DNA from: an uncultured delta proteobacterium
Lineage (GTDB): Bacteria; Desulfobacterota; Binatia; HRBIN30
DNA length: 64,000 bases
NCBI GenBank assembly: GCA_963729835.1
Contig: CAVSQF010000023.1
Location: 155,739-219,738, forward strand
Direction: 5' to 3'
Numbering within the stretch: the first letter of the stretch is position 1; each line of letters begins with the position of its first letter. Below the pieces are notes generated by a model. That model was not told where the DNA came from. It did not search any database and saw nothing but the letters and a program-made list of their open reading frames with translations. Of this stretch, positions 10,270 to 58,530 are shown one piece after another. The position numbers and the translations under genes were made by a program.

Positions 10270-10298
10270 GATGTCCAGACGCGATCGCGTTTCCGCAC

Positions 10299-10882: not shown

Positions 10883-10897
10883 ACAGGGCCTTCTTGC

Positions 10898-13196: not shown

Positions 13197-13377
13197 TGTC
13201 GTCTCCCTGAGCGTCCGCTTGTCTAGCCCACATGAATTCGCCGGTCTCCGTAACACAGCCGACGTTGCATGCGCCGCTATGTAACACGGGCGGGGCTTAC
13301 GTCCCCAGCGGCTGGCGCGCGCGAAACCGATCGGCCCATCGTCCACGCCGCAGCAGACCGAAGACGCGCGGATGATG

Positions 13378-39517: not shown

Positions 39518-39888
39518 TATGACCGCCGCCGAATATGAAGGTTGAGAGTGGAGTCCTCGATCCGGGCTTCAATGTTGTCGGGATCGGCGTCGGCTGGCAG
39601 GGTGAGCGTCCGCTCGAACGTGATGGCGTGCTGTGTCCGTGTCCAGCCCGTCTTGCCCGCGCGCGCTTTCTGCTGGTGCCGTGCGCCCGTGATGGTCAGC
39701 TGCCGGCCGTGCACTTGCACCGTCAAGTCACTCGCGAGCATCCCCGGTACGGGCAGTCGGATGATCCATCCATCATCCACCTCTTGCATCTCCGCGGGCA
39801 CGATCTCGCGACCAGGCCCGCGCCAGGGGCGATGCACGAGCTCATCGAACAGACGGTCGATCTCATCGAGCACTGAGGGCAGTGGCAT
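39517..39888 (-). CDS. Hsp20 / alpha-crystallin small heat-shock protein
   Basis: DDGWIIRLPVPGMLASDLTVQVHGRQLTITGAR ... FERTLTLPADADPDNIEARIEDSTLNLHI. Its TAA shares one base with the ATG of the Lon-like gene. Confidence 0.85.
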   Translation of the reverse strand: MPLPSVLDEIDRLFDELVHRPWRGPGREIVPAEMQEVDDGWIIRLPVPGMLASDLTVQVHGRQLTITGARHQQKARAGKTGWTRTQHAITFERTLTLPADADPDNIEARIEDSTLNLHIRRRS

Positions 39889-40070
39889 CGCGACGTCACG
39901 GTTACCACCGCGCACGCCGCACCGCAATGAGGTGGCACTATCTGTGGGTTGCCGCTCACGAATTAGTGCCGGCGCGGCCACGGCCGAGAAAATTGATGCC
40001 GCCCGTATTTACTCACGGGATATGTACTGCTAGCTGCCTCTTGCAAGGATAGAGTGTAGGGACACAGGGC

Positions 40071-40667
40071 ATGGGTGTAGTGGACGACCCAAATACATCG
40101 CCGCAACGACTGCGCCTCCTGCAACGGTTGCGTGCCGCCATTGGCCAGCCTTTGGCTCCGGCCACGGCGATTGCTGACAGCTTCATCCTGACGCGCTTGG
40201 CGGACGCTGTGCAGTGGGCGCGCAAGTACTCGTTCTTCCCGTATCCGTTCGTGACTGCGTGCTGCGGCATGGAGTACATGTCGGTGGCCGGTCCACGCTT
40301 CGATATCGACCGGTTCGGCGCGGCCTTTCCCCGCTTCACGCCACGACAGTCCGATTTGCTGATGGTCGTCGGGACGATCACGCATCGGCAGGCGCCGGTG
40401 TTGCGCCGCGTATGGGAGCAGATGGCCGAGCCGAAATGGGTCATGTCATTCGGCGCCTGTACCTCCTCCGGCGGGCCGTACAACAACTACGCGGTGGTTC
40501 AGGGAATCGATACGATCATCCCTGTGCATATCTATATCCCGGGGTGCCCGCCCCGCCCGGAGGCGGTGCTCGATGGCTTGATCAAACTGCAGCAACGCGT
40601 CCAAGAGGAGCGCGGTGGGCAGCCGTTGCGTGAGATCCACGGCAGCGGGCGCGTGATTCAGGAATAG
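40071..40667 (+). CDS. nuoB: NADH-quinone oxidoreductase subunit B-like
   Basis: ACCGMEYM, RFTPRQSDLLMVVGT, FGACTSSGGPY, IYIPGCPPRPEA (the four N2-cluster cysteines). Confidence 0.88.
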   Translation: MGVVDDPNTSPQRLRLLQRLRAAIGQPLAPATAIADSFILTRLADAVQWARKYSFFPYPFVTACCGMEYMSVAGPRFDIDRFGAAFPRFTPRQSDLLMVVGTITHRQAPVLRRVWEQMAEPKWVMSFGACTSSGGPYNNYAVVQGIDTIIPVHIYIPGCPPRPEAVLDGLIKLQQRVQEERGGQPLREIHGSGRVIQE

Positions 40668-40670
40668 CGG

Positions 40671-42290: not shown

Positions 42291-42832
42291 TGGCCACGCG
42301 CGTCGTCACCGTCGTTCGCCCCCAACCGATGAGTGAAAGCTGGGCGCGCACCGCTTTCGCCCTCGTGGTGGGACTGTGGGTGACGAACAGCCACTTTCTG
42401 CGCAATCTGTGGGGCTTCCTCCGGCGCAAGCCCACCGTCTTCACCGTGCAATATCCGGAGCAGCGCGTGGCGCTCCCCAATGCCTTCCGCGGCATGCCGG
42501 TGCTGGTGCAGATGGATAACGGGAAGGAACGTTGCGTAGCGTGCGGGCTCTGTGAATGGGCCTGCCCGACCGATTGCATCACCATCTTCCCGGCGGAGAC
42601 AGAGGACGAGATCGAGCGCTACCCGCAGGTGTTCGACATCGAGATGTCGCGCTGCATGTTCTGCGGTCTGTGCGAGGAGGCCTGTCCGGAAGAGGCGATC
42701 GTCATGAGCCAGCAGATGGAGATCACCGCCTACACGCGCGCCGGCACCGTCTGGCACAAACAGGACCTGCTCGTCCCAGTGTCGAAGCTTGCGCCGCGCC
42801 TGCAGCATGTGCGCGGCGGCTACGAACGGTGA
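42290..42832 (+). CDS. nuoI: NADH-quinone oxidoreductase subunit I (two 4Fe-4S)
   Basis: CVACGLCEWACPTDCI and CMFCGLCEEACPEEAI. TGATG overlap with nuoG. Confidence 0.9.
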   Translation: MATRVVTVVRPQPMSESWARTAFALVVGLWVTNSHFLRNLWGFLRRKPTVFTVQYPEQRVALPNAFRGMPVLVQMDNGKERCVACGLCEWACPTDCITIFPAETEDEIERYPQVFDIEMSRCMFCGLCEEACPEEAIVMSQQMEITAYTRAGTVWHKQDLLVPVSKLAPRLQHVRGGYER

Positions 42833-42849
42833 AAGGTTGATGCGAGGGC

Positions 42850-44622
42850 ATGGCTGAAGGGGTAGAATCACAATCTGTGATGCCGTCGGGTGAGGCCCAG
42901 GTGCCGGCGCATCCCGTTCTGGATCGCTTGCGCGAGCGCTTCCCGTCCGCCGGGCTCGCCGGCGGCGTGTACCGCGGCGACGCCAGCCTCAGCGTACCGG
43001 CCGACCGCCTGCTCGAGGTCGCGCGCTTCGTGAAAGAGGATCCGCACCTGCGCTTCGACATGCCGATCGACGTGACGGCGGTCGACTACCTCGGCCAGCG
43101 GCCGCGCTTCGAGGTCGTCTACCATCTACTCTCGACCGTGCATCATCATCGGCTGCGGCTGAAGGCCCGCGTGCCCGAAGAGAACCCGACCATTCCCAGC
43201 GTGACGCCGATCTGGGTGGGCGCGAACTGGTTGGAGCGGGAAACCTACGATATGTACGGCATCCAGTTCAGCGGCCACCCGGACCTGCGCCGCATCTACT
43301 TGTACGATGAGTTCCAGGGATATCCGCTGCGCAAGGACTATCCCAAGGAGAAGCGCCAACCGCTCATCGGGCCCGGGGCGGCGCACACGCAACTGGCGGA
43401 CACCCATCCGTACTCCACCGACTTGCTACAGCCCGTGGGCGGCAGGGGCATGCTCGATACCGAGTTGCTGCGCGTGCAGATCGGCCCGTCGCATCCGGCG
43501 ACGCACGGCACCGTGCGCATCGTGATGGATCTCGATGGCGAGACCATCGTCAACGCCGACGTCCAGGTCGGCTTCCTCCATCGCGGCTTCGAGAAGGAAT
43601 GCGAGAGCGGTTATTACTACCAGGCCATTCCCTACACCGACCGGCTCAATTACTGTTCCTCGATCCTCTGCAACATCGGTTACTGCCTCGCCGTGGAGAA
43701 ACTCCTCGATGTCCAGACGCCACCGCGCTGTCAGTTCCTGCGTGTCATCAGCGGTGAGCTCGCACGGATGTGCGATCATTTCATCTGCCTCGGTGCGACG
43801 GCACTCGAGCTGAGCGCGTTTTCGGCCTTTCTCTACGCCCTCGAAGCCCGCGAGCTGATCTGGGACCTGGTGGATGCCATCTGCGGCGCCCGGGTCACCA
43901 GCAACTACGTGCGTATCGGCGGCGTGAGCGCTGATTTGCCGGACGGGTTTGTGGAGCTGGCACCGCAGAAGATCAAAGCGGCGCTCAAGTTGCTGGTCGA
44001 CATGGAGCGGCTGCTGATCGAGAATCCGATCTTCCGCGGACGCATGGAAGGCACCGGGCGGCTGCCCGTCGAGGAGCTGATTGCCTACGGCGTGTGCGGG
44101 CCGGTGCTGCGTGCAGCCGGGGTCGACCTCGACCTCCGACGCACACAGCCGTACTTGGTGTACGATCAGCTCGACTTCGATGTCCCCCTCGGTACGGCCG
44201 GCGATAACATGGATCGATTCCTCGTGCGTATCGAGGAGATCCGCCAAAGCGCACGCATCATCGACCAATGCTTGCGCCTGCTGCCTGATGGTCCGGTCAA
44301 CATCGACGATCCTGCGATCCGCTGGCCCGGCAAAGGCCGCGTGTACACGCGCATGGAGGAGCTCATCGATCAGTTCAAACTGGTCACCGAGGGTGTGAAA
44401 CCCCCGCCCGGTGAGGCGTACGTCGGCACCGAGTCCGCCAATGGCGAGATTGGATTCTTCTTGGTCAGCGACGGCTCCGGCAAGCCGTACAAGTGCCGTT
44501 GCCGTTCGCCCAGCTTCTCCAACGTGCAGCCGCTGAGTCGTATGATCCAAGGCCGGCTGCTTGCGGACTTCGTTCCGACATTCGACATGATCAACCTAAT
44601 CGGAGGGGAATGTGACCGTTGA
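42850..44622 (+). CDS. nuoCD: Fused NuoC-NuoD subunit
   Basis: The NuoC part has WLERETYDMYGIQFSGHPDLRRI. The NuoD part has IGPSHPATHGTVRIV, FLHRGFEK and a C-terminal RSPSFSNVQ...GECDR. No hydrogenase CxxC motifs. Confidence 0.9.
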   Translation: MAEGVESQSVMPSGEAQVPAHPVLDRLRERFPSAGLAGGVYRGDASLSVPADRLLEVARFVKEDPHLRFDMPIDVTAVDYLGQRPRFEVVYHLLSTVHHHRLRLKARVPEENPTIPSVTPIWVGANWLERETYDMYGIQFSGHPDLRRIYLYDEFQGYPLRKDYPKEKRQPLIGPGAAHTQLADTHPYSTDLLQPVGGRGMLDTELLRVQIGPSHPATHGTVRIVMDLDGETIVNADVQVGFLHRGFEKECESGYYYQAIPYTDRLNYCSSILCNIGYCLAVEKLLDVQTPPRCQFLRVISGELARMCDHFICLGATALELSAFSAFLYALEARELIWDLVDAICGARVTSNYVRIGGVSADLPDGFVELAPQKIKAALKLLVDMERLLIENPIFRGRMEGTGRLPVEELIAYGVCGPVLRAAGVDLDLRRTQPYLVYDQLDFDVPLGTAGDNMDRFLVRIEEIRQSARIIDQCLRLLPDGPVNIDDPAIRWPGKGRVYTRMEELIDQFKLVTEGVKPPPGEAYVGTESANGEIGFFLVSDGSGKPYKCRCRSPSFSNVQPLSRMIQGRLLADFVPTFDMINLIGGECDR

Positions 44623-46474
44623 GCAACCCAGCGGCGCCGTGACCACCACCGGGGGTGGCACTGCGTCGGGGGCGACGCCAGCCTACAAACTCTCGGCCGA
44701 ATGCCGGGCGCGGATCGTCGCCGAGCGAAAGAACTTTCCCCAGGCGCGCGCGGCCCTGATGGCGGCCCTGCATCTGGCGCAAGCCGAGTACGGCTACTTG
44801 CCGCGCGCCATTGTCGACGAGGTCGCGGAGTTGCTCGAACTGCTGCCCATTCAAGTGCAGGAAGTGGTCTCGTTCTACCCGATGTTTCACGCCGAGCCGG
44901 TCGGCAAGTGCCACATCCAAGTCTGTACGAACATCGCCTGCGCCCTGGGCGGCGCGCGCAAGCTGGTCCGCCAGATCGAGTCGACCCTGGGTATTCGTGC
45001 CGGCGAGGTCACGGCGGACGGTAAGTTCTCGCTGGCGGAGGTGGAGTGCCTAGGCTCCTGTGGCACGGCTCCGGTCGTGCAGGTGAATGATCGGCCGTAT
45101 ATCGAGTGCGCCACTGCGAGTGATATCGAGCAGCTCCTCGGCGGTGCCGATCCGGCGACGTTGGAACGGGCGCCGGGGCTGTCGATGATTCCCGAAGGCA
45201 TCGAGGGGTATCTCCTGCCGCCCAATGGACAGTCGCGGTGTGCGATCGACGAGTACCTGGCGGCCGGCGGGTACCAGACCGCGCAGCGGGCGTGGCGCGA
45301 GATGCAGCCGGAGGCGATCACCGAGATCGTCAAGGACTCCGGGTTGCGCGGGCGCGGTGGTGCCGGTTTCGTCGCTGGGCTGAAGTGGACCTTCATGCCG
45401 AAGCAGTCGACGAAACCGTGTTACCTGGCGGTGAACGGGGACGAGAGTGAACCGGCAACGTTCAAGGACCGCCAGATCATCGAGCGCAACCCGCATCAGT
45501 TCATCGAAGGCGCGCTGATCGCCGGGCGCGCGATCCGCGCCGTGGCGGCATACGTCTACCTGCGCGGCGAATACGTCACCCCGTACCGGATCCTCATGGA
45601 GGCGATTTCAGAGGCGTATGGGCGCGGGTTCCTTGGCGACAATGTGATGGGGACCGGGCAGCGCTTCGACATGTACGTGACACGGGGCGCCGGAGCGTAC
45701 ATCTGTGGCGAAGAAACCGGCATGATCGAGTCGGCGGAAGGCAAGAAGGGACAACCGCGTAAACGACCGCCCTTTCCCGCCGGCTGGGGGCTGTGGGGGT
45801 GCCCAACCACGGTCAACAACATCGAAACGATTTCCCACGTCCCCTTCATCCTGCAGCGTGGGGCAGACTGGTTCAAGAAAATCGGTACCGAGAAGAGCAC
45901 CGGCAACACCCTCTTCGGCATCAGCGGCCACGTACGCCGTCCCGGCGTGTACGAAGCGCCGCTCGGCACGCCATTGCAGGAGATCATCGAGCGTTACGCC
46001 GGCGGCATGGCGAACGGCCGGCCGCTCAAAGCCATCATTCCCGGCGGGGTGTCGATGCCCGTGCTCACGGCCGACAAACTCGGCGTCCGCATGGATCACG
46101 ATTCGCTGCAGAAGGCGGGCACGCTCCTGGGCACCGCCGGCATCGTGGTGCTGGACGACTCCGCGTGCATGGTGCGCGCGGCGCTGGTGATCGCGCGCTT
46201 TTTCCGGCACGAGAGCTGCGGACAGTGCACGCAATGCCGCGAAGGCACGGCGTTCCTCTACAAGCTTTTGAAGCGCATCGAGAGCGGCGGTGGCCGTCTC
46301 GAGGACCTCGACACGATCAATAGTGTCTGTGGCTTCATGGAGGGGCAGACGATCTGTGCCCTGTCCGATGCGGCGGCCTGGGGCGTGGGAAACTTCGCGC
46401 GGCGGTTTCGCGCCGACTTCGAGCGGCACATCACCGAGCAACGCTGTCCGTTCCCCGACAGCTTCGAGGCGTGA
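44612..46474 (+). CDS. nuoEF: Fused NuoE-NuoF subunit
   Basis: NuoE 2Fe-2S (VCTNIACALGG...CLGSCGTAP), then NuoF GLRGRGGAGF, GEETGMIES, ESCGQCTQCREG. GTG start overlaps the nuoCD end. Confidence 0.9.
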   Translation: MTVEQPSGAVTTTGGGTASGATPAYKLSAECRARIVAERKNFPQARAALMAALHLAQAEYGYLPRAIVDEVAELLELLPIQVQEVVSFYPMFHAEPVGKCHIQVCTNIACALGGARKLVRQIESTLGIRAGEVTADGKFSLAEVECLGSCGTAPVVQVNDRPYIECATASDIEQLLGGADPATLERAPGLSMIPEGIEGYLLPPNGQSRCAIDEYLAAGGYQTAQRAWREMQPEAITEIVKDSGLRGRGGAGFVAGLKWTFMPKQSTKPCYLAVNGDESEPATFKDRQIIERNPHQFIEGALIAGRAIRAVAAYVYLRGEYVTPYRILMEAISEAYGRGFLGDNVMGTGQRFDMYVTRGAGAYICGEETGMIESAEGKKGQPRKRPPFPAGWGLWGCPTTVNNIETISHVPFILQRGADWFKKIGTEKSTGNTLFGISGHVRRPGVYEAPLGTPLQEIIERYAGGMANGRPLKAIIPGGVSMPVLTADKLGVRMDHDSLQKAGTLLGTAGIVVLDDSACMVRAALVIARFFRHESCGQCTQCREGTAFLYKLLKRIESGGGRLEDLDTINSVCGFMEGQTICALSDAAAWGVGNFARRFRADFERHITEQRCPFPDSFEA

Positions 46475-46477
46475 AGA

Positions 46478-46608
46478 CAGCCGTCAGCAGTCAGTGGTCA
46501 GCAGTCAGCTGAGAACACTCATGTACCGAACAGCCGTCAGCAATCAGCAGTCAGCCGTCAGCAGTAAAGAAGGAGCTGATCGCTGAGAGCTGAAGGCTGA
46601 CAGCTGAT
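46478..46608 (+). repeat. Intergenic array of GTCAGC-type short repeats that can fold into a long imperfect hairpin
   Basis: ACAGCCGTCAGCAGTCAGTGGTCAGCAGTCAGCTGAG and ACAGCCGTCAGCAATCAGCAGTCAGCCGTCAGCAG. 46545-46562 pairs at 16 of 18 positions with 46589-46606. Confidence 0.75.
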
Positions 46609-46623
46609 AGCGAGGGATCCTCT

Positions 46624-46926
46624 ATGCCCGGTCCGATACTTCGAAACGTCGTAGTACGATATTTCGGCACGCCGGATGTCGCCGAAGGCAGCGTCAACGA
46701 GCCGCGCGAGCACGACGAGCACGGGATGCGTTTCAACGAGAAGTGGGTCTATCGGCATCCGCTACGCGATCCCGCCGGCGCCGCCGAGCGCATCATCTAC
46801 TGGCACCGCTACGATTACGTCGGCTCGGTCATTCGCACCAGCAAAGATGGCGAGTGGCGGAAGGACGACCGGCTCCCTGCGCTGCTGATGAACGCACCCG
46901 GCCGGCAGGCGTCAGCGCACACATAA
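46624..46926 (+). CDS. Hypothetical 100-aa protein; its 3' end is the repeated junction sequence of island 3
   Basis: GAGGGA lies 6 nt upstream of the ATG. No family recognised. Confidence 0.5.
   Translation: MPGPILRNVVVRYFGTPDVAEGSVNEPREHDEHGMRFNEKWVYRHPLRDPAGAAERIIYWHRYDYVGSVIRTSKDGEWRKDDRLPALLMNAPGRQASAHT
46840..46886 (+). repeat. Direct repeat copy A (inside the 3' end of ORF 46624..46926)
   Basis: AGCAAAGATGGCGAGTGGCGGAAGGACGACCGGCTCCCTG is identical over 40 nt to 53631-53670 (46 of 47 nt when extended). Confidence 0.9.
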
Positions 46927-46986
46927 TTCGCCTCCCATGAGTGAGAACCTGGGTTCTCACGAAGCTTCTCGAGGGCGTTGGCGCGA

Positions 46987-47244
46987 TCAGTCGGGTTGAG
47001 GGCGTCCTTCAGCAAGAGTTCGGTGCCGACGATCACCGCGAGCTTCCGCACGGTCGCTCGCGGCGGTAATGCTCTGGACCTTGATGCGGTGGGCGGTCTT
47101 CTCGGCTTGGGCGAGGTCGTACTGCATCTGCAGACCGAGCCAGACCTCCGGACGGCTGCCGAAGGCCTTGGCCAGCCGTATGGACATCTCGGGGGAAATG
47201 CCCGCCCTGCCATTGACGAGGTTGTTGAGGGTCTGGCGCTTCAC
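46987..47244 (-). CDS. higA: HigA-family XRE-HTH antitoxin, probably 5'-truncated; no toxin gene is adjacent
   Basis: KRQTLNNLVNGRAGISPEMSIRLAKAFGSRPEVWLGLQMQYDL. Homology continues upstream (AAARLGV) but is cut by an in-frame TAA at 47263-47265. Only a GTG start is available. Confidence 0.55.
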   Translation of the reverse strand: MKRQTLNNLVNGRAGISPEMSIRLAKAFGSRPEVWLGLQMQYDLAQAEKTAHRIKVQSITAASDRAEARGDRRHRTLAEGRPQPD

Positions 47245-47415
47245 ACCAAGGCGGGCGGCCGCTTACGGCGACGGCGGGCCGGCCCCATTCACTCTCGTGA
47301 GTTTGCTGGGGCTTGACAAGGACAACCATCAAGTGGTTTATGCCGCATCGAGGACTTGCGCGCGCGGAGCGGTCACAGACAAAGCACCCTGAACCAGAGG
47401 CAGGGAGGTTCGGCT

Positions 47416-50400
47416 ATGGAAAAACATCCGATCCGTCGTGGAATTGTTCGGCTCTTGTTGCTGCCTCTGTTTGCCGCCGCACCAGTGTGTGTTGTACCAC
47501 GGCAAGCTGCAGCGCAAGCACTCGATGTTGATGGGAACGGTAAAGTCGATGTGGCGACGGACATCGTCTACATCGCCCGTCGGTTGCTGGGCCTCGCGCC
47601 CGTGCCCGCCAGCTTCCGAGCTGCTGACCCGACCATTCCATCGGACACGACAGTAGGCTCGAACGTCGACGCACTCGGCACCGCACTCGATGTGGACGGG
47701 AACGGCACCGTCGATGTCGCGACGGACATCGTGTACATCGCGCGGGCCCTGCTCGGCCTACCACCAGTGCCCGGTAGTTTTCGGCAGCTGGACCCGACAA
47801 TTCCCGACGACGCGACGATTGCTGCACACATCCCCGTGCTAGCTGGGCTGCTATCGTTCGGGAATCAGGTTGTTGGAACAACAAGTCCCCCGCAAAGCGT
47901 CGCGTTTACGAATTCTACCGGCACCCCGGTCGTTGTGAGCAACGTCTCTACCAGCGGCGACTTTCTTCAAGCTGGTGCGTGCCTGGGAACACTTGCACCG
48001 AGCCAGACGTGCAGCATTTCGGTCGCGTTCAGTCCAAAGTCGATCGGCCCACAGAGAGGCAGCCTAACGATCGCCGAGAACGTGACGGGTAAGTCCTATA
48101 CCGTGACGCTACTCGCCACGGGCGTGACCCCGGCGTCAGTCGACGTTTCGTTTGCTCCCCTGCCTGGTTCGAACGCCGAAAACCTCGTAGCAGTGAGTTC
48201 TCTCGGCGAGAGCCCGATCGGCGTGGGTGCGTCCACGGCAACTTTCCCTACGGCGCCGAACCTAGTGCAGATCGTCGCGCTGATGGATAACTCCCGGGGA
48301 TTCGGCTGGACCGCTGTCTCACCCGCATGGTTCCAAGATCAATCAAGCCAGCCGATTGGCCCCTTATCTACGGCAGTACAAATGGTGTTTTCACTTCCTT
48401 TTGTGTTCAGCACGAGTCCCATAAACGCCGCTCGGACAGTAAACATTCTCACTGGTTTACCTGAGGTTCAGGCATTAGCCACCGCATTACAAGGCGCAGC
48501 GGGAGGTTCTAACCCCTTAACAGACCCCTCGGTCGTTTCTGCATACTCGGCGGCGGTAGCAGCTTCGCTGGCAGCACTAAACGCGGCCCCAAGTGCTGCC
48601 GCACGACGCTCACATAGTCAGCCCAGTAGCGTCCGTGTGTCGATTACCGAGGGGCAGCGGCGCACCGCCGTGGAGCGGCCACTTCTGGAAACTGCATCCT
48701 ATCTGGTTTCAGAGCAAACTTTGCCGCAACAGCCGCAGGATCTACAGGCCACTCGCATCAATATCGATCCGTCCATTCCCTCGATACAGCCAGCCTGGAG
48801 TTCAAATGTTGACATAACCGATCAAGGCCTATTCTGGATCGGGTTCGTATTCCCGGCTAAATTGGCGTTTCCGTCTGAAGCGACGTTTACGCAAGCCTTG
48901 CTGACTGACTGGCAGAGCAACCAATCGAGAAACTGGGCTTCCTACGTGCCGGCAATTTCGTCTCCTTATGTGCCGCTGCGCAGCCAGTCGGGTAACCTCG
49001 TAACATATCTGCAGCCGAGCACTTGGGCGAACGGCATGTACGTTAGCGACGCGGAGGAACTTCTAGGAAACTTGATCGCACGGCACGTCGGCGCGCCGGA
49101 CACCGGTACCGCTCAGCCTTCGTTTGACCTACCGACGCACTCCAACGCGTACATTGTACACCTCTATGGCTGTTCGTATGATGTTCGGGATAGATTGATC
49201 CTAAACAATCAGAATGCCCCAAATGATTTTGCTCTCCTAGCGAACTGGGACCCGCCAGTGGCACAGACGGGCTGGACTGCGTCTTGCGCCGCTACGCTGC
49301 TGACACTGTTCTACGATGACCTCAACGAACTACTTTCAATATTGCCGTTGCCTGCCGGGGAGTCCATTCTGTCTTGCGTGCTGACCAACGAAGCCCAAGA
49401 TCAAATCGTTTCCGACCTCGACCAAGACCTGACGAACGCCTTCCAAGGCGCCTACAGCGGCGTCGGCACAGCACAGGGTATCGAGGACGCCCTGGCTGTC
49501 GCAGGTCTCCGCTTCGCGAGCAACTTCACACAGAAGCTTGGGCCGTGCATAGCGCAAGAAGGCGTTTCCGACGTGTTGAAAGCGTTGGTGTCTCTGGTGT
49601 CGGCGGAGTTTGGGGCACTCTTGAACGCAGTCATCCTACCGACGAACGCTTGCGCGATGACCTCCGGTTACCCCACAGCGACAGCGTTCTGCGATCAGTT
49701 TTCGCGGTTTTTCATGTTCAGGCCTTGGGAAGGTACGGTTGTTCAGGTCGGCTCCGACCCATGGGCATGCGGCACCAATGAGTGCTCGCCGGAAGGAGCG
49801 ACTCAGTGCTTCGATGCGCACACCCAACAGACATGCATCGCGGACGGATCGGGTTGCCTGACGTGGGGGGCCGATTACCAGTGTGCGAACGGCTGCGTCG
49901 GTGCGGCCTGTGCGACCTGCGTAAACGAGTGCTCGGCCGGTCAGACACAGTGTCTGAACTCGACGACACAGCAGACGTGCGGCGACTACGGTTCCGGGTG
50001 CCTGACGTGGGGGTCGGACTTCCAGTGCGCCGACGGGTGTGTTGGTAGTGCATGTGCCGCCTCGCCCGCCGGCGGCTCGATTCTCATTTTCCCCAATATT
50101 GTGGCCGGAACAACGCAGGGTGATACGAGCCTACAAATCACCAACGTATCGCAGATGCCAGTGTTTCTCACTTGCACTTACTTCAACCGTTCGGCAACAG
50201 CCCCACTGCCAGGTTGCACCGATTTGTCTTTTACGCTTTTCTTAACCGGCTCAGGTGACCCGGCATACTCCTCAACATCATGGCTCCTGAGTACTGGTGA
50301 GCGGATGGGTGCCGGCTTTATACCTCCTACCGCGGATTTCAGTGGCGACTTGGTATGCGTAGCATGCACAGCACCCCCTTTCGTTCAGCCGCTCATGCAG

Positions 50401-53046
50401 AATGTCCTGATGGGCTCTGCGGCGTACGTTGGCCCCGGTGACGGTTTCAGCGGGAACGCCATTCAGATACAGGCACTTAGGACCAGCCGGGATTGCGTCC
50501 TCCGGCTCAATGGCGCCGAGTATGGTACGTGCCCATCGAGCATCTCCGACGCACAGCTGGCGTGCTGGAATCAGGACGCCAGCTGTCAGGGACCGTTCTT
50601 TTTTGCAGCAAGGTGCAACAATAATGGGACGATTGATCCGGGTGAAGAGTGCGACGGTGCCGATCTCGGCGGCGCAACCTGCCAATCGCACGGGTTCATG
50701 AATGGTGGAACTCTGACGTGCAACGGCGATTGCACAGTGAACACTATTGGCTGTTGCAATGAGTGTGCGCCGGTCAACATGACACAATGTCTTGACGAGA
50801 GCACAGAGCAGACTTGTTCGGATAACGGCTCTGGCTGCCTGACATGGGGTGAAAACCAGACGTGTCCAAGTGGTTGCTATGTGGGTTTCGTCAATGGCTG
50901 TTGCAATGTTGGCGGATGCGCCGAATCCGCATCTGCGTGTGGCCTTGCGGAATACGCGGTCCCCACGGCCTACAGCGGCCCCGTTGATATCACCACTGGT
51001 CTGGATGGCAACCTGTGGTTCACGGAGCAGAGCGGTAACAAGATTGGTAAGATCACTACCTACGGCGACTTTACGGAATACGCGGTCCCCACGGCCTACA
51101 GCGGCCTCGGCGAGATCACCACTGGTCCGGATGGCAACCTGTGGTTCACGGAGGAGACCGGCAACAAGATTGGAAAAATGGGCATCTCCATTTCCGAGTA
51201 CCCGATCCCGACGGCCAATGGTCAGCCCGGTGACATCACCACTGGTCTGGATGGCAACCTGTGGTTCACGGAGCACATCGGGAACAACATTGGTAAGATC
51301 ACTACCGACGGCGACTTTACAGAATACGCGATCCCTACGGCCAACAGCGGCCCCCGTGCCATCACCTCCGGTCCCGATGGCAACCTGTGGTTCACCGAGG
51401 ACAACGGCAACAAGATCGGCACGGTGACCACCTCCGGCAGCTTCACCGAGTACCCCATCCCCACTGCTGACAGTGGGCCTTCCGACATCACCACTGGTCC
51501 GGATGGCAACCTGTGGTTCACGGAGAGGAGCAACAGTAAGATAGGCCGCATAACGACGGGTGGAACAATCACAGAATTTTCGCTTGCTGCAGGTGCAGGC
51601 CCATCCAACATCACCACCGGTCCGGATGGCAACCTGTGGTTCACGGAGATTATTGCCAACCGCATCGGACGGATAACGCCAGGAAGTCCGAACAGCGTTA
51701 CTGAATTCGGGCTTCTGGCCGCCAACAGCCCATTCGGTGTCCCCGCTGCGCTTGGTGCCATCACCAGTGGTCCCGACGGCAATCTGTGGTTCACCGAATT
51801 AGACGGCAACAACATCGGCCGCATCACAGTTTGCCCACAAGCGTGTGGAAATTCGATTCGTGAAGGCTCGGAGCAGTGCGACGGGAGCGATGATGCCGCG
51901 TGTCCGGGAGCGTGTCAGGCGGATTGCACGTGCGGAGCGTCCCCGACTCCAACAGTCCCGCCGACGGATACCGCGACCACTATACCGACAGCTACACCGA
52001 CGCCGACCGAGACACCGACGCCGTGCTTCACCGACAACGGCGACGGCACGATCACCGACAATACGACGGGCCTGATGTGGGAGAAGAACGACCAGTCCGG
52101 AGGCATCCACGACTACAGCAACACGTACACGTGGGGCATGACGGGCTCGCCGTACACGATGAATGGGACGATGGTGACGACGTTTCTGGCGACTCTGAAT
52201 GCGGGCGGTGGCTTCGCCGGCCACACGGACTGGCGGATTCCAAACATGAATGAGTTGCAGAGCCTCGTGAACTACCAGAACGTGTCGCCGGCCGTCGATA
52301 CGGCCTTCAATACGGGCTGCGGCGCGAGTTGCACGGTGCTCACGTGCAGCTGCACGCAGCCGGGCTACTACTGGTCGTCTACTACCTACCAGGGCCTTCC
52401 GACCGACGCGTGGTACGTGGACTTCTACGCCGGCGCCGGGCACGCCGGCTCTAAGAGCTACGGCAGCTATGTTCGCGCAGTCCGTGGTGGCTCGTCCCAA
52501 CTGCTGCGAACCGGGCAGACGAGCGACTATGGGGCGGGCAGCGACGGGAATTTGCAGGAAGGAGCGGCGCGGTCCTACACCGACAACGGCGACGGCACGA
52601 TCACCGACAATACGACGGGCCTGATGTGGGAGAAGAACGACCAGTCCGGAGGCATCCACGACTACAGCAACACGTACACGTGGGGCATGACGGGCTCGCC
52701 GTACACGATGAATGGGACGATGGTGACGACGTTTCTGGCGACTCTGAATGCGGGCGGTGGCTTCGCCGGCCACACGGACTGGCGGATTCCAAACATGAAC
52801 GAGTTGCAGAGCCTCGTGAACTACCAGAACGTGTCGCCGGCCGTCGATAGGGCCTTCAATACGGGCTGCGGCGCGAGTTGCACGGTGCTCACGTGCAGCT
52901 GCACCGTCTCCTACCTCTACTGGTCGTCTTCTACCGTCGCTGCCCACCCGAACCTCGCGTGGCTCGTGGACTTCAGCAATGGCTACGTGTACAACAGCTT
53001 CAAGTTCAGCCTCTACCACGTGCGTGCCGTGCGCGGTGGCTTGTGA
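47416..53046 (+). CDS. Giant (1876 aa) secreted mosaic protein: 2 dockerin-like EF-hand repeats, ASH/choice-of-anchor-D-like domain, about 540 aa with no recognisable domain, 3 Cys-rich modules, Myxococcus-type Cys repeats, 7-blade Vgb (streptogramin-lyase)-like propeller, PT linker, 2 DUF1566 domains
   Basis: AGGGAGG lies 7 nt before ATG 47416. Signal peptide is RLLLLPLFAAAPVCVVPRQAAAQA. Domain motifs: DVDGNG(K/T)VDVATDIVYIAR twice; LSFGNQVVGTTS...TCSISVAFSP; CSxGxTQCxxxxTQQTCxxxGSGCLTWG three times; ITTGPDGNLWFTE seven times; TGLMWEKNDQSG...WRIPNMNELQSL...VRAVRGG twice. Confidence 0.88.
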   Translation: MEKHPIRRGIVRLLLLPLFAAAPVCVVPRQAAAQALDVDGNGKVDVATDIVYIARRLLGLAPVPASFRAADPTIPSDTTVGSNVDALGTALDVDGNGTVDVATDIVYIARALLGLPPVPGSFRQLDPTIPDDATIAAHIPVLAGLLSFGNQVVGTTSPPQSVAFTNSTGTPVVVSNVSTSGDFLQAGACLGTLAPSQTCSISVAFSPKSIGPQRGSLTIAENVTGKSYTVTLLATGVTPASVDVSFAPLPGSNAENLVAVSSLGESPIGVGASTATFPTAPNLVQIVALMDNSRGFGWTAVSPAWFQDQSSQPIGPLSTAVQMVFSLPFVFSTSPINAARTVNILTGLPEVQALATALQGAAGGSNPLTDPSVVSAYSAAVAASLAALNAAPSAAARRSHSQPSSVRVSITEGQRRTAVERPLLETASYLVSEQTLPQQPQDLQATRINIDPSIPSIQPAWSSNVDITDQGLFWIGFVFPAKLAFPSEATFTQALLTDWQSNQSRNWASYVPAISSPYVPLRSQSGNLVTYLQPSTWANGMYVSDAEELLGNLIARHVGAPDTGTAQPSFDLPTHSNAYIVHLYGCSYDVRDRLILNNQNAPNDFALLANWDPPVAQTGWTASCAATLLTLFYDDLNELLSILPLPAGESILSCVLTNEAQDQIVSDLDQDLTNAFQGAYSGVGTAQGIEDALAVAGLRFASNFTQKLGPCIAQEGVSDVLKALVSLVSAEFGALLNAVILPTNACAMTSGYPTATAFCDQFSRFFMFRPWEGTVVQVGSDPWACGTNECSPEGATQCFDAHTQQTCIADGSGCLTWGADYQCANGCVGAACATCVNECSAGQTQCLNSTTQQTCGDYGSGCLTWGSDFQCADGCVGSACAASPAGGSILIFPNIVAGTTQGDTSLQITNVSQMPVFLTCTYFNRSATAPLPGCTDLSFTLFLTGSGDPAYSSTSWLLSTGERMGAGFIPPTADFSGDLVCVACTAPPFVQPLMQNVLMGSAAYVGPGDGFSGNAIQIQALRTSRDCVLRLNGAEYGTCPSSISDAQLACWNQDASCQGPFFFAARCNNNGTIDPGEECDGADLGGATCQSHGFMNGGTLTCNGDCTVNTIGCCNECAPVNMTQCLDESTEQTCSDNGSGCLTWGENQTCPSGCYVGFVNGCCNVGGCAESASACGLAEYAVPTAYSGPVDITTGLDGNLWFTEQSGNKIGKITTYGDFTEYAVPTAYSGLGEITTGPDGNLWFTEETGNKIGKMGISISEYPIPTANGQPGDITTGLDGNLWFTEHIGNNIGKITTDGDFTEYAIPTANSGPRAITSGPDGNLWFTEDNGNKIGTVTTSGSFTEYPIPTADSGPSDITTGPDGNLWFTERSNSKIGRITTGGTITEFSLAAGAGPSNITTGPDGNLWFTEIIANRIGRITPGSPNSVTEFGLLAANSPFGVPAALGAITSGPDGNLWFTELDGNNIGRITVCPQACGNSIREGSEQCDGSDDAACPGACQADCTCGASPTPTVPPTDTATTIPTATPTPTETPTPCFTDNGDGTITDNTTGLMWEKNDQSGGIHDYSNTYTWGMTGSPYTMNGTMVTTFLATLNAGGGFAGHTDWRIPNMNELQSLVNYQNVSPAVDTAFNTGCGASCTVLTCSCTQPGYYWSSTTYQGLPTDAWYVDFYAGAGHAGSKSYGSYVRAVRGGSSQLLRTGQTSDYGAGSDGNLQEGAARSYTDNGDGTITDNTTGLMWEKNDQSGGIHDYSNTYTWGMTGSPYTMNGTMVTTFLATLNAGGGFAGHTDWRIPNMNELQSLVNYQNVSPAVDRAFNTGCGASCTVLTCSCTVSYLYWSSSTVAAHPNLAWLVDFSNGYVYNSFKFSLYHVRAVRGGL
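52029..52355 (+). repeat. Internal duplication copy 1 (first DUF1566 domain)
   Basis: 325 of 327 nt are identical to 52578-52904 (offset 549 nt). Mismatches are at 52251 and 52301. Confidence 0.9.
52578..52904 (+). repeat. Internal duplication copy 2 (second DUF1566 domain)
   Basis: See 52029-52355. The antisense track ORFs 52052..52243 and 52601..52792 are identical proteins, which confirms the repeat. Confidence 0.9.
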
Positions 53047-53630
53047 TCGATCTGATCCATTGACCACCTGAGTCACGGAGAGCCGCTGGGTGCATGCCTG
53101 GCGGCTCTGGGGAGGCCCCTTAGGCTGGTTGGGTTGGTTGCAGTGGTGTTACAGGGGGAGCCGCTGGAGCCTTCTGGTAAGGCGGTCGGGCTATGGCAAG
53201 AAGCTCATCTGCAAACTTGCTGAGCTCTGTGTTCGTCGTTTTCAGGTCGTCAACGAGTGCCGCATAGCGTGGGTACTGCCGCTGTATTTCTTGAGGGGAC
53301 GTAGAGTTTGTGAAAAAATCGTCGGCCTGCGAATTTGGCCCATTGATTTCATTGAACTTTATCGTCACGAAATGTTCGATTTGGGGATTTTTTCACAAAG
53401 TCGTAGCGCGGAATTGGCGGAATTGTGCGTGTGCCCGGCGCTCTCGGAACGTAGTTTCATTTGTTCCGTTCACCGGCGCTAGTACTGATTGTAATATATA
53501 CGTATAGAGTGATACTTGACACTCATCCTCAATGCGCCATACTACGCAGCTCATGGGCGCGGACCGTGATTGGATGCCCCCGGGGTTCTGCATCACGTGA
53601 TGGCGCGGGGGATTGAGCGGTGGGAGATCA

Positions 53631-53677
53631 AGCAAAGATGGCGAGTGGCGGAAGGACGACCGGCTCCCTGAGCTGCT
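53631..53677 (+). repeat. Direct repeat copy B (orphan fragment of the 3' end of ORF 46624..46926)
   Basis: A 40-nt perfect match to 46840-46879. It translates as SKDGEWRKDDRLPELL, preceded by an in-frame stop, so it is non-functional. Confidence 0.9.
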
Positions 53678-53872
53678 CACGAAAATGGTTCCCGCTCAGG
53701 CAGAGCTAGCAGAAGCCTGAGCAAATAGGCTCAGCCGCCGCCGCCGGGACGTACCCGATTTCGCCCGGCAAGCTGGATGACGGCAGCGGGATTGGTATGG
53801 CCTCAGCGAGGCTCTCAACCACCCCGTGTTGGGGGGTCGCCTGAGCCTCGGGCGCGTGCTATCAGATGTGTC

Positions 53873-54121
53873 ATGGCACGGGTGAATTTGACACTGGATG
53901 AACACACGTATGCTCAGCTCGATCAGCACGCCAAGCGACTGGGTAAGCCCCGCGCGCGCGCCGTAAAAGACCTTCTGGTCGAGGGGCTGGCCCGCCACGC
54001 GACCCACGAGCGGCGCCAACGGCTGGCCCGCGACTACGCGGCGGGGCGTGCGGACGCGCGCGCGCTGTTGAACGACCTGGAGTCGGGTCAATTCGATCTG
54101 CTAGATGATGAACGCTCGTGA
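53873..54121 (+). CDS. RHH (CopG/MazE-like) antitoxin
   Basis: MARVNLTLDEHTYAQLDQHAKRLGKPRARAVKDLLVEGL is a ribbon-helix-helix. Overlaps the downstream toxin gene. Confidence 0.75.
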   Translation: MARVNLTLDEHTYAQLDQHAKRLGKPRARAVKDLLVEGLARHATHERRQRLARDYAAGRADARALLNDLESGQFDLLDDERS

Positions 54122-54479
54122 AGCGGTCGACTTCCGCCGCGGCGACATTCTCTGGATCCACTGTGAGCCCTCGGTAGGCGTGGAGCCACGCAAGCTTCGC
54201 ACCTGCGTGGTGGTGTCCAACGACATCGCCAACCGGTTCGGGCAAGCCGTTACGGTGGTGCCGACCCAGGCGTACACGGCCGAGCGAGCGGGGCGCGCCT
54301 ACATGGTCGACTTGCGCCGCCCACGCTCGAACCTCGACACGGGGCGTGTTGCCAACGCCTCTATGGTCATGACCTACGATAGGCGGCGCGTGGTCAAACG
54401 CGCCGGGCGAGTCAGCGCTCAGGCCCAACAGGCGTTGGACGAGGCGCTCAGCGTCCACCTCGGCTTATCGGCACTCTGA
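54105..54479 (+). CDS. mazF: MazF/PemK-family endoribonuclease toxin
   Basis: RRGDILWIHCEPSVGVEPRKLRTCVVVSNDIANRFGQAVTVVPTQ ... ASMVMTYDRRRV. Confidence 0.85.
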   Translation: MMNAREAVDFRRGDILWIHCEPSVGVEPRKLRTCVVVSNDIANRFGQAVTVVPTQAYTAERAGRAYMVDLRRPRSNLDTGRVANASMVMTYDRRRVVKRAGRVSAQAQQALDEALSVHLGLSAL

Positions 54480-54881
54480 GCCGAGTAGTGAGTGCTCCAC
54501 GTTCACCTCGCTACGTCTTGTCGCAATAATGTGCTGGCTGCTCGATCGCCTGCACGCGGAAGGTGCGACAGTCTGGCTGTCAGCATTACGGGACCTCGCT
54601 GACGAGCTGATCCCACGTCTCCGACGGCGTTTCTCGGCGTGAACGGATATAGTTCACACCATGAACGATTTGTTAGTACCTGACGCGGCTGCGCGGGCAT
54701 TGGAGCATTTCCTCGACAAGCACGAGCAGGCCCGCCGGTACCGACCTGTACCGCCTGTCGCCCCGCATCGTTGCCGCGCCACTGGCATCGCTGCTCGCCT
54801 GAGCGGGCCGCGCCCAGGTGTTGGGCTCAGGCGGCTCCCCATGATCGGCGAGAAGACGATGCAGGGTGCCGAATCGAAAAC

Positions 54882-54941
54882 TACGTCGGCTCAATGATCC
54901 GCACGAGCCAAGGCGGGGAGTGGCAGAAAGACGACCAGTGA
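54882..54941 (+). repeat. Direct repeat copy C (diverged)
   Basis: About 79 percent identical (45 of 57 nt by hand) to 46816-46873. It translates as YVGSMIRTSQGGEWQKDDQ* versus YVGSVIRTSKDGEWRKDDR. Confidence 0.6.
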
Positions 54942-55106
54942 TGGCTTGCGCGCCTGAGTCGTCTTTAGACGACTTCCCCATTTTCGTAGCCATCACGAGC
55001 CGAATCGCGCCCCACGCGTGCCATTTTTTCGCGCAATAATGAGCCGGGGGGTGTAGAATGCGCGGCGCACGCGTTGTCAAGTCAGATTGCCCGACGAGGT
55101 TGCCCT

Positions 55107-57395
55107 ATGGAGATTCGTAAAAAGGACGCGCTCGACTATCACCGGCAGGTTCCCAAGGGAAAGATCGAAGTGATGCCGACCAAGCCCTGCCGCACCCAGT
55201 GGGACTTGAGCCTGGCCTACACTCCTGGAGTTGCGGAGCCTTGCCGGGAGATCCAGCGCGACCCCGAATGCACGTTCGAGTACACGGCGCGAGGGAACCT
55301 GGTGGCGGTGGTCTCCAATGGGACGGCGGTTCTCGGCCTGGGAAACATCGGCGCGCATGCGGCCAAGCCCGTGATGGAAGGAAAGGCGGTCCTCTTCAAG
55401 CGCTTTGCGGACATCGATGTGTTTGATCTGGAGGTGAACTCGGAAAGCCCCGAGGACGTCATCAAGTTCTGCCAGCTCCTCGAGCCAACGTGCGGGGGCA
55501 TCAACCTGGAGGACATCAAGGCTCCCGAGTGTTTCTATGTTGAAGAGACGCTGCGCAAGACGATGTCCATTCCGGTCTTCCATGACGATCAGCACGGGAC
55601 GGCGATCATCAGCGGCGCCGCGCTGCTGAATGCGCTGGAGCTGGTGGGCAAGGAAATCGACAAGGTCCGAATCGTTTTCAGCGGGGCGGGAGCGGCAGGG
55701 CTGGCCACTGCCGAGCATTATCTGCGGCTGGGCGCGCGGCGCGAAAACATCATCATGTCCGATATCCACGGCGTGATTTATGAAGGCCGCGCGGAAGGGA
55801 TGAACCCGTACAACGCCCGCTTTGCTGTGAAGACCACGATGCGGACCCTGGCCGAGGCGATGCGCGACGCCGACGTGTTCGTCGGGCTCTCGGTGGGGAA
55901 CCTGGTGACGCCGGACATGGCGCGCTCCATGGCCGCCCGGCCGATCATCTTCGCCATGGCCAACCCCATTCCGGAGATCAGTTACGAAGACGCCAAAGCC
56001 GCCCGGCCGGATGCCATCGTGGCCACGGGCCGTTCGGATTATCCCAACCAGGCCAACAACGTGCTGGGCTTTCCCTTCATTTTCCGCGGGGCACTGGACG
56101 TGCGGGCGCGCGCCATCAACGAGGAGATGAAGATCGCCGCCACGCACGCGCTGGCGGCGCTCGCCAAGGAGGACGTGCCGGATGCCGTCCTGCGTGCCTA
56201 TGGAGTGGGCCGGCTGCAATTCGGGCCGGAGTACATCCTCTGCAAACTCTTCGACCCGCGCATCTTTATTTGGGTGTCCTCTGCCGTTGCGGATGCCGCC
56301 ATGCGAAGCGGTGTAGCGCAAATCCAAATCGATGTGCAGGAGTATCGCGAGCAACTCGCCCGCCGGATTGGGCGCACCTATCAAGTCATGCAGAACGTCC
56401 GCCAAAACGCCAGAGCCGCGCCGAAGCGCATTGTGTTTTCAGAGGGTGAGCACGAGAAGATCATCCGCGCCAGTTACCAGCTCGTGGACGAGGGGATCGC
56501 GTTCCCCATCCTGTTGGGGCGGCCGCCGGTCATCGCAGACAAGCTGCGCGACCTGGGTCTCGGAGAATTGCGCGCCGAGATCATCGAGCCGGGCCACTCC
56601 CCTCGCTTGGGAGCCTACGTGGAGGAGTTCTATCGGATCCGCCAGCGGCGGGGTGTGACGGAAAGCGAAGCGCGCGAGCAAATGCTCAACGCCAACTACT
56701 TTGGAGCCATGATGGTGCACATGGACGACGCCGACGGGTTCATCGCCGGAGTCAGCCAGCACTACCCCGACACTATCCGCCCGGCGCTGCACGTCATCCG
56801 GATGCGCGAGGGAGTGCATCGCGTCTCAGGTCTCTACGTCATTGCCACCCGGAAAGAGGTCTATTTCTTCGCGGATACCTCGGTGAATATCGACCCGTGC
56901 GCCGAGGAAGTGGCGGAGATCGCCCTGCTCGCCGCCGACGTGGCGCGGGAATTCAACGTCGAGCCGCGCGTGGCCATGCTGTCGTTCTCAAATTTCGGGA
57001 GCACCCAACATCCTCTTGCCGAGAAGATGCGCCGGGCCACGGAGCTGGTGAAACAAAAAGAGCCGAACTTGATGGTCGAAGGGGAAATGATGGCGGACAC
57101 GGCCCTGTCGCCGGAGTTGATGCAAGAATATCGGTTCTCAAAACTCCAGGGCGGCGCCAACGTCCTCATCTTCCCGGACCTTGAGGCCGCCAACATTGCC
57201 TACAAGCTTATGATCCGCCTAGGGGGCGCCGAAGCCCTGGGGCCTATCCTGATGGGCATGTCGAAACCCGTTCACGTCCTGCAACGAGGCGCGACCGTCG
57301 AAGATATCGTCAACATGGCGGCTATTGCCGTGGTCGACGCGCAAAAAGCCGGCGCGCAGTTGAAGGTCGTCTTGTCACAGCCGTCGGCAGCATAG
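55107..57395 (+). CDS. maeB: NADP-dependent malic enzyme with a C-terminal phosphotransacetylase-like domain
   Basis: [53 protein letters not shown], plus a PTA-like C-terminal half. Confidence 0.95.
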
Positions 57396-57696
57396 GCTCG
57401 ATTCGTGACCGAGCGACCGGCTCGCATGCTTGCCGGGCTTCCAAAGTGAGTTCGCGGTCCTGAGCCCGACCTAGACGGGCCTAGACGCCGGTACACGAGC
57501 CCGGTTGTCGTGCCGGCACGGGCCTGCTAAATAGAAACTTCTGGTTGTCTGCTGTGAGAACCTCCTTCCTCAAAGTGCTGCTGACCGGGAGTTCCCACTC
57601 ATTCACTCAGGCGGACTGCAGTGATGGCAATGGGTGTCTCTCACCGTCAGCTCCGCAGCGTGGCCGCGGGAGCGGTTTGACAAGGAGAGTCGCACA

Positions 57697-57996
57697 ATGG
57701 GGAAGAAGCTGTACGTCGGCAATTTAGGGTTCGACGTCACCAGTAAGGATCTTGAGGAGCTGTTTGCGCAAGCCGGCGTCTGCGAGTCGGCGGCGGTGAT
57801 CACCGACCGGGCCACCGGTCAGTCTCGCGGATTCGGATTCGTGGAGATGAGCTCGAATGCCGATGCGCAGAAGGCAATCCAGCAATTTGACGGCCAGGAA
57901 TTCAAAGGACGTGCGCTGAAAGTGAATGAGGCACGTGAGCGCGAGAGCCGCGGCGGCGGTGGCGGCGGTCGTGGCGGCGGTCGGAACCGCCGTTAA
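57697..57996 (+). CDS. RRM-type RNA-binding protein with a Gly/Arg tail
   Basis: RNP-2 KLYVGNL, RNP-1 RGFGFVEM, C-terminal RGGGGGGRGGGRNRR. AAGGAG lies upstream. Confidence 0.9.
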   Translation: MGKKLYVGNLGFDVTSKDLEELFAQAGVCESAAVITDRATGQSRGFGFVEMSSNADAQKAIQQFDGQEFKGRALKVNEARERESRGGGGGGRGGGRNRR

Positions 57997-58080
57997 GGAC
58001 TCGGAAGCCGTCATGAGGCCGGTGCGGCCTTCTGATGCGGGGCGTCCCGCCCGGTGGCGGTGTGCAGTGTGCAACGAGCG

Positions 58081-58530
58081 ATGACAGGCTCTCCAGCACG
58101 GGCGTATCTGCGGCGCCAGCTCGAAGCACATCTCGACCGACTGGGATACTCACAGGTCCGGAGCCCGCGCGCCGGCGTCCCGGTCGCCGAGATCGCCCGC
58201 GTCAGTCCGGTCCGCGGCCGTCTGGCGTACGGACAAACCGTGCTCCGCGCCGACCTGCAGCAGCCGCGGTGCCATGAGCGGCTCCTGTTTTTCTCGCAAC
58301 GCCGGACCCGTCACCGGAGCAGCATCCTGTTCTTTATCGGTGTGGCGGAGGAGGACCAACCGGAGCTCGAAGCGCTGCTCGAGCACCTCAGCATCCGGAA
58401 TGCGGTGCGTGGTGGCCACGTGCACGTCGTCGCGATACCGCTCCCGAGCACTCTCTCGCGGCCGGCCGCCGCGCCCGGCGCGCCGGTGCGCGCCCGGCGC
58501 GTGGCTGGCGGCATGCTCAAGAACGCATGA
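58081..58530 (+). CDS. Hypothetical protein
   Basis: An ORF with plausible composition but no recognised family. The start is uncertain (58054 or 58081). Confidence 0.4.
   Translation: MTGSPARAYLRRQLEAHLDRLGYSQVRSPRAGVPVAEIARVSPVRGRLAYGQTVLRADLQQPRCHERLLFFSQRRTRHRSSILFFIGVAEEDQPELEALLEHLSIRNAVRGGHVHVVAIPLPSTLSRPAAAPGAPVRARRVAGGMLKNA

Follow-up and report, generated by a model that had tools for sequence, protein, structure and literature searches.

Genomic hotspots that lack mobile-element genes and show raised homologous recombination in the flanking core genes have been described (Oliveira et al. 2017, PMC5635113). Other described systems with features in common with the locus reported here are the islands formed at gene 3' ends, represented by tycheposons (bioRxiv 10.1101/2020.12.28.424599), the orphan 3'-end arrays of Rhs and CdiA genes (PMC3967940), and the type II toxin-antitoxin cassettes such as RHH-MazF/PemK and HigBA. 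We analyzed a stretch of 64,000 nucleotides (nt) from an uncultured delta proteobacterium of the Binatia (contig CAVSQF010000023.1, positions 155,739 to 219,738), which is called the window below. In the window, a small conserved gene next to the nuo cluster is followed by two displaced pieces of its own 3' end, with cargo genes between and after them, and then by a gene for an RRM protein. The reading that we hold with moderate confidence is that these repeated gene ends mark three blocks of DNA added serially at a strain-variable hotspot between the small gene and the RRM-protein gene, most likely by homologous recombination and not by a dedicated integrase.

The locus resembles the integrase-less hotspots in that the interval lies between two genes adjacent in relatives, its content differs among close relatives, neither an integrase nor a transposase was found within it, and the flanking core genes bear signs of recombination. 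It differs from them in two respects. Their model is a double crossover replacing the content, whereas serial addition is seen here, and the partial copies of the left gene that remain here as scars are not predicted by that model. The intact target, the direct 3'-end repeats at module borders, the outward displacement of older modules by newer ones, and the degenerate content are shared with the 3'-end islands. Unlike those islands, which use tRNA, tmRNA, or protein genes, the locus has a lineage-specific small protein gene as its target, and no recombinase, excisionase, sharp core, attP-bearing element, or recurrence in relatives was found. As in the Rhs and CdiA arrays, a main gene with a variable C-terminal end is followed by displaced 3' fragments, each beginning with a conserved stretch able to recombine with the main gene. 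However, the tail consists here of about 5–25 residues predicted to be disordered and not of a toxin domain, and the following genes are a toxin-antitoxin pair, a surface protein gene, and a metabolic enzyme gene in place of cognate immunity genes. As for the toxin-antitoxin cassettes, the RHH-MazF unit of about 665 bp is a discrete cassette found at 85–95% identity in unrelated contexts, and the HigA piece is a decayed remnant, but both are cargo here, and the gene-end repeats are not explained by cassettes.

The small gene and the copies of its 3' end are as follows.

46624–46926, plus strand: small conserved gene, 100 amino acids (aa), intact; left core gene of the hotspot and source family of the copies
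46840–46879, plus strand: copy A, the exact 40-nt repeat within the intact gene, codons S73 to L85
53629–53720, plus strand: copy B, piece of the 3' end of the small gene in displaced position, beginning near S73; tail and stop codon of its own
54880–54941, plus strand: copy C, small-gene fragment of older or foreign origin, about Y65 to D83, with a TGA stop

The 40-mer AGCAAAGATGGCGAGTGGCGGAAGGACGACCGGCTCCCTG is present exactly twice, at 46840–46879 and 53631–53670 (spacing, 6791 nt), whereas no such match is expected from 100 shuffles of the window, and no further copy with up to three mismatches exists in the window. The perfect stretch is bounded on both sides by single differences between copies A and B (C versus A at 46839 and again at 46880). 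Beyond it, the homology covers about 55 nt (46838–46892 and 53629–53683) and decays gradually into the tails without a sharp core. Copy C is 80% identical to the resident gene (54882–54936 versus 46816–46870) and is closed by TGA at 54939–54941. A degenerate pattern of the core matches only the three sites A, B, and C in 64 kb, against 0.04 expected. Both the exact repeat with its diverged third copy and the judgment that the perfect repeat is not due to chance, put forward in an earlier note on this DNA, are thus borne out, and a dispersed repeat is ruled out together with chance (three copies only in the window versus 0–0.04 expected). Target duplication by a transposon is also ruled out, since 40–55 nt is too long and the only transposase, of the IS256 family (11143–12423), is 35 kb away.

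All copies are direct, with the same orientation and in gene order, and their in-frame alignments fall within the 3' portion of that gene. The in-frame translations of copies B and C are SKDGEWRKDDRLPELLTKMVPAQAELAEA and NYVGSMIRTSQGGEWQKDDQ, respectively, each followed by a stop. A scan of the six-frame translations with a profile of the small-gene family gave exactly two extra fragments in the window, corresponding to copy B (53625–53687, profile positions 71–91) and copy C (54876–54938, positions 63–83). Within the small gene, copy B starts at around 46838 and copy C at around 46814, about 25 nt further upstream; the stretch common to both displaced fragments is 31 nt. Judging from these alignments, all the repeats come from the 3' ends of a single family of genes.

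The alleles represented by the fragments should be noted. Copy B is identical to the related locus L020 at 49 of 49 positions (53629–53677). Compared with the resident gene, it has a mismatch on either side of the 40-mer and a different tail. Copy C resembles the alleles of L028 (51/57) and L006 (50/57) more than it does the resident gene (45/57, over 54880–54936), 57 nt being a small sample. By these comparisons, neither copy B nor copy C comes from the resident allele. No match to the tails of copies B and C was found among 120 proteins of the family; the copy-B-type tail of one relative, L021, was recognized at the DNA level.

The extent of the variable segment was defined by comparison with 63 related loci, which were drawn from collections of genomes and metagenomes. 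L029 has a gene for an RRM protein (94% aa identity to 57697–57996) directly after the small gene and then a homologue of the open reading frame (ORF) 58054–58530. In L045, the small ORF is also directly followed by the RRM gene (78% aa). This adjacency indicates that the whole stretch from 46.9 to 57.5 kb is variable, including maeB, and, as read from gene order, the empty arrangement is nuoEF-small ORF-RRM. The earlier note had suggested looking for genomes in which nuoEF, the small ORF, and maeB are contiguous, an arrangement observed in none of the 63 loci; maeB follows the small gene in none of them. The variable segment thus runs from 46932 to around 57481 (about 10.5 kb in the window). 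By gene order and the fragment alignments, it consists of three modules, and a piece of the small gene stands at the head of each. Module 1 comprises the A-type tail, the remnant of HigA, and the giant gene with the AT-rich patch to its right; module 2, copy B, RHH-MazF, and remnants; and module 3, copy C, a strongly structured inverted repeat, a terminator-like site, and maeB. As in the earlier note, the repeats lie at module borders, and serial addition at one site is still the best reading, but the two modules of the note within 46816–54941 give way to three within 46932–57481. The segment and its flanks are listed below.

44612–46474, plus strand: nuoEF fusion gene, left neighbor of the small gene; Pfam 2Fe-2S_thioredx, Complex1_51K, SLBB, NADH_4Fe-4S
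46880–46931, plus strand: A-type tail plus 5 nt; collinearity with L019 and L020 stops at 46931
46932–47047, no strand: spacer, unique, with a palindrome of 9-bp arms at 46941–46960
47048–47262, minus strand: HigA-type helix-turn-helix antitoxin fragment, internal 215 nt, cut at both ends
47356–53046, plus strand: gene for a giant protein, secreted or at the surface, 1896 aa, with ATG 47416 as the probable start; cargo of module 1
53047–53628, no strand: AT-rich non-coding patch, right end of module 1
53819–54484, plus strand: RHH-MazF/PemK type II toxin-antitoxin cassette by Pfam, a discrete unit
54485–54879, no strand: unassignable remnant sequence, unique
54938–55029, plus strand: nested inverted repeat; outer arms 54938–54946 and 54988–54996 (9 bp), inner hairpin 54956–54975 (8 bp)
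55107–57395, plus strand: maeB, NADP-malic enzyme with PTA domain by Pfam; cargo of module 3
57482–57996, plus strand: RRM-protein gene (57697–57996; Pfam RRM_1) and its upstream region, right core flank

The closest relatives, L019, L020, and L021, are metagenome contigs with 90–94% nt identity to the window in nuoEF. Collinearity of L019 and L020 with the window extends to 46931, 5 nt beyond the stop codon of the small gene (blastn; L020 over 37987–46931). Beyond this point, L020 has unrelated DNA with a PemK-like fragment, and the match of contig X3 also stops at 46931 and continues with the sequence of L020. In L021, the match to the intact gene stops at 46879, where the 40-mer ends, and the tail of copy B follows (84% identity to 53631–53699; LPELLAKTVPA-stop versus LPELLTKMVPAQ...). 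This contig has one HEAT-repeat gene after the small gene, and its homology to the window resumes at 57482. L021 thus has a single copy of the gene, with a copy-B-type tail and without module 1. The earlier note would have given up an insertion if relatives without the giant gene carried both repeats; the single copy in L021, which lacks the giant gene, favors insertion. The window, L020, and L021 each have different content right after the small gene. The gene is single-copy in the close relatives, and an extra fragment of it was found in none of the 63 related loci. On the downstream side, nothing is conserved across the class: in about 45 relatives, the 88 ORFs that come next after the gene represent 67 Pfam families, nearly all of which occur once.

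Signs of recombination were also found in the left flank. In an alignment of the window with L019, L020, and L021, sites where L021 differs from L019 and L020 were taken as informative. The window is mostly L021-like at the informative sites within 46678–46758, whereas it is L019/L020-like at all 23 informative sites within 46764–46910. Earlier switches of affinity occur within nuoEF. These patterns, from an alignment of four sequences only, suggest that the flanking core genes are mosaic.

The layout calls for additions in which the old gene end was retained. Under the reading that we favor, incoming DNA from a related strain would include the 3' portion of the small gene and the DNA that follows it in the donor. 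Recombination would take place within the 3' end of the gene by the homologous recombination of the host. The join would be additive, either because the incoming DNA is a circle entering by a single crossover (Campbell-type) or because a homology-anchored join is completed illegitimately. The resident gene end would then be pushed downstream, not replaced, and the newcomer would supply a new tail, so that the gene stays intact each time. We infer that module 1 is the newest; the form of the incoming DNA and the additive step are likewise inferred. Recombination between the two 40-nt repeats would delete module 1 and restore an intact gene with the tail of copy B, which is the arrangement of L021.

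Several points weigh against this reading. Two independent additive joins would have occurred within about 25 nt in one gene end, which exceeds the expectation for a non-specific process and favors some site preference. RecA-type recombination is inefficient on homology of 40–55 nt. A second example of displaced fragments was found in none of the 63 loci, and the process is not demonstrably recurrent. No donor was found in which the small ORF is adjacent to maeB or to RHH-MazF. The reads of the organism, contig-only at 2–4× depth and with no contig spanning the junctions, are too thin to show excision, circles, or empty-site variants.

A site preference would be accounted for if the repeats were scars of site-specific integration, that is, if a tyrosine or serine recombinase used an attB site in the 3' end of the small gene and each element brought a replacement end, the recombinase having been lost or acting in trans. 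The earlier note had compared the repeats with attL/attR-type scars. The best argument for such scars is that fragments B and C share 31 nt and have start points no more than 25 nt apart. The architecture agrees as well, with the gene intact, its 3' end repeated directly at module borders, and the newest module beside it; L021 resembles an empty site for module 1, and decayed cargo such as the cut HigA gene suits old, degenerate elements. Serial integration with partial copies of the target gene is documented for tycheposons (bioRxiv 10.1101/2020.12.28.424599). However, no tyrosine or serine recombinase, nor a recognizable remnant of one, was found by Pfam in the island ORFs, the unassigned stop-to-stop segments, or the other window ORFs tested; the earlier note had likewise seen none, and the IS256/Mutator-family transposase is the only mobility gene found in the window. 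The same sharply bounded core is not seen at every junction, since the starts of B and C differ and the homology fades gradually, and the fragments represent alleles other than the resident one. No dyad symmetry of a core site, as in a XerCD/dif-like or an integron attC-like site, was found in the 40-mer by eye. Neither repeated use of the site in other genomes nor an attP on a mobile element was observed: neither the core sequence nor the small gene was found on any viral contig, extra fragments are absent from the 63 relatives, and no recombinase-type family is included in the 25 families listed from the downstream ORFs of about 45 relatives or recurs there. Furthermore, unrelated DNA follows the A-type tail in L020, indicating that tail and cargo do not form a single element. 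Evidence for att sites is thus lacking, and the idea in the earlier note that the small-gene family is a recurrent integration hotspot fails, given that no extra fragment was found in the 63 loci, no recurrent recombinase family downstream of the gene, and no core in viral contigs. Overall, we regard site-specific scars as unlikely, but worth keeping in view.

The two other explanations that we weighed seem far less probable. An assembler might have used the 40-mer to fuse a strain having an A-type gene and the island with a strain having a B-type gene and RHH-MazF. The contig is from a metagenome, related strains of the one and the other tail type are found side by side in sediment metagenomes, and no independent contig spans the junction at copy B. 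The organism itself is present in the public runs X1 and X2 at 2–4× depth, as Logan contigs; other runs hold relatives. The left flank of copy B (to around 53628), however, is not common to the gene, and a graph assembler would need genuine reads across that junction to arrive at copy B from the island, so a shared 40-nt word cannot create the left junction of copy B, and the same argument applies to copy C. In addition, the island pieces and the flanks occur in X1 and X2 at equal low depth with 100% identity. We therefore consider such a fusion very improbable. The direct orientation and gene order of the copies would also be expected if the small gene had been duplicated in tandem in situ, with later losses of 5' parts and insertion of cargo between the copies. 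Against this, copy B has an L021-type tail and, on either side of the 40-mer, a mismatch to the resident gene, copy C lies nearer to distant alleles than to the resident gene, the close relatives have a single copy, and full-length tandem copies were seen in none of the 63 loci. An origin in situ hardly seems credible on these grounds.

A broader proposal can be drawn from serial addition by homologous recombination, though we consider it doubtful and offer it as speculation. The 3' end of the gene may serve as a reusable, recombinase-free landing pad, to which DNA carrying the last 50–170 nt of the gene would be added by host recombination, each addition giving a harmless new tail, and the repeats would allow modules to drop out again. 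This would be a displacement like that of Rhs and CdiA at a non-toxin, housekeeping-linked gene, with capture of arbitrary cargo, for example toxin-antitoxin pairs, a gene for a surface protein, or one for a metabolic enzyme.

The contents of the modules agree with the earlier note, whose list between the copies (a truncated HigA, a giant gene, an AT-rich patch, an RHH-MazF pair, and a palindrome) was confirmed by Pfam, GC content, and repeat scans. The HigA fragment covers only positions 16–53 of the HTH_3 profile, and contigs of relatives match 47048–47262 at 97% and run on past both of its ends into intact gene sequence. A part of the spacer (46948–47046) is found as a separate piece in another metagenome (X6). 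The giant protein has Dockerin_1, ASH/DUF1573 Ig-like, and Vgb_lyase domains and two Lcl_C domains by Pfam, and the GC content at third codon positions of its gene is 0.68 versus about 0.8 in the neighboring genes. An internal duplication of 300 nt with 98% identity (52016–52315 and 52565–52864) corresponds to the two Lcl_C domains, and seven 126-nt repeats of Vgb-lyase type lie at 50945–51830. The GC content of the AT-rich patch is 0.50–0.54 (53000–53600), versus about 0.62–0.67 nearby, and no Pfam match was found in any frame of the patch. A promoter-like site (53516–53543; TTGACA, 16 nt, CATACT) in the patch is directed to copy B and RHH-MazF.

In the RHH-MazF cassette, RHH_1/RHH_5 (53873–54121) comes first and overlaps PemK_toxin (54105–54479; E value, 3e-18) by 17 nt. 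The cassette is 85–87% identical at the nt level to L068–L073 over exactly 53819–54484, in an unrelated context where its neighbors are an AAA_14/DUF4143 gene and a VapBC pair. Contigs X3/X4 match 53815–54546 at 95% with unlike flanks. In the remnant sequence at 54485–54879, no Pfam match was found at E ≤ 1 except for one insignificant match.

At the end of copy C, AAAGACGAC forms a perfect inverted match to GTCGTCTTT 23 nt downstream, and the nested inverted repeat folds with a z score of −3.85, none of 200 shuffles being as stable. On its 3' side, a terminator-like hairpin with a T-run is located at 55006–55020. No other copy of the inverted-repeat element (54938–55029) was found in the window or in any fetched locus, and the sequences on the junction sides are unique.

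The best homologues of maeB are at most 82% identical, with homology confined to the coding region, and they have a conserved neighborhood of their own (maeB, a small gene, a radical-SAM/SPASM gene, and a Peptidase_S58 gene). As far as gene neighborhoods tell, maeB is not an ancestral neighbor of the small gene. A donor with small ORF-maeB adjacency or a C-like fragment was not found in the maeB contexts L064–L067. The closest homologues are two tandem paralogues at 3305–8292 of L065/L066, 75% and 81% identical to the maeB gene in the window. The named matches at 76–80% are from Terriglobia/Acidobacteriota, suggesting that the maeB gene may come from outside the lineage. Taking the matches of RHH-MazF, the HigA fragment, and maeB together, the cargo is a patchwork of discrete units known elsewhere in other contexts.

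Toxin-antitoxin modules after the small gene are found only in the window, L020, and L001. In L001, a nucleotidyltransferase-HEPN toxin-antitoxin pair (10371–11137) directly follows the small gene as another accessory module at the same boundary. Such modules were considered as a general trait of the site and rejected, since the downstream small ORFs in L046, L014, L007, and L039 belong to no family. Elsewhere, the window is rich in toxin-antitoxin and defense remnants. Other accessory clusters at 2262–2600 and 9734–13785 hold a BrnA antitoxin, a DUF433 protein, an N-terminal fragment of GmrSD, the IS256/Mutator transposase mentioned above, and a PIN-domain toxin (13378–13785).

The small protein belongs to no Pfam family. 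Its own family has a typical length of about 92 aa, with 127 homologues at 58–88% identity, and the named members are from Candidatus Binatia. An AlphaFold2 model has a pLDDT (predicted local distance difference test score) of 85.6 with the tail, residues 95–100, disordered (pLDDT < 50), and no fold match to the model was found in the PDB at E ≤ 0.001. Exact-protein look-ups found neither the small protein nor MazF of the window on record. The upstream order nuoCD-nuoEF-small ORF is kept in most of the 63 related loci, and the small protein may be associated with the NADH dehydrogenase module as a partner particular to this lineage. The nuo genes at 40671–46474 have an unusual order, which is kept across related loci: a NuoG-like gene, nuoI, then a fused nuoCD and the fused nuoEF. 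Here, the name nuoEF is confirmed by Pfam, and the other nuo names are read from translations. The region between nuoEF and the small gene (46477–46576) contains short tandem-like repeats with CAGCAGTCAGC-type units (family D8). This region is variable: contigs X3/X4 have unrelated 33 nt in place of 86 nt, and other contigs show a 33-nt back-step.

The locus is a new example of a familiar kind of hotspot and does not represent a new system. It provides an ordered example of hotspot growth by addition, not by replacement, in an uncultured lineage of phylum level (Binatia), in which the successive events are recorded by the displaced gene ends. The local map is also corrected: maeB and the giant surface protein gene are accessory insertions, and the true core neighbors are the Binatia-specific small gene tied to the nuo cluster and the RRM-protein gene. 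If the additions were recombinase-free, the locus would be a natural case of additive, homology-driven gene capture.

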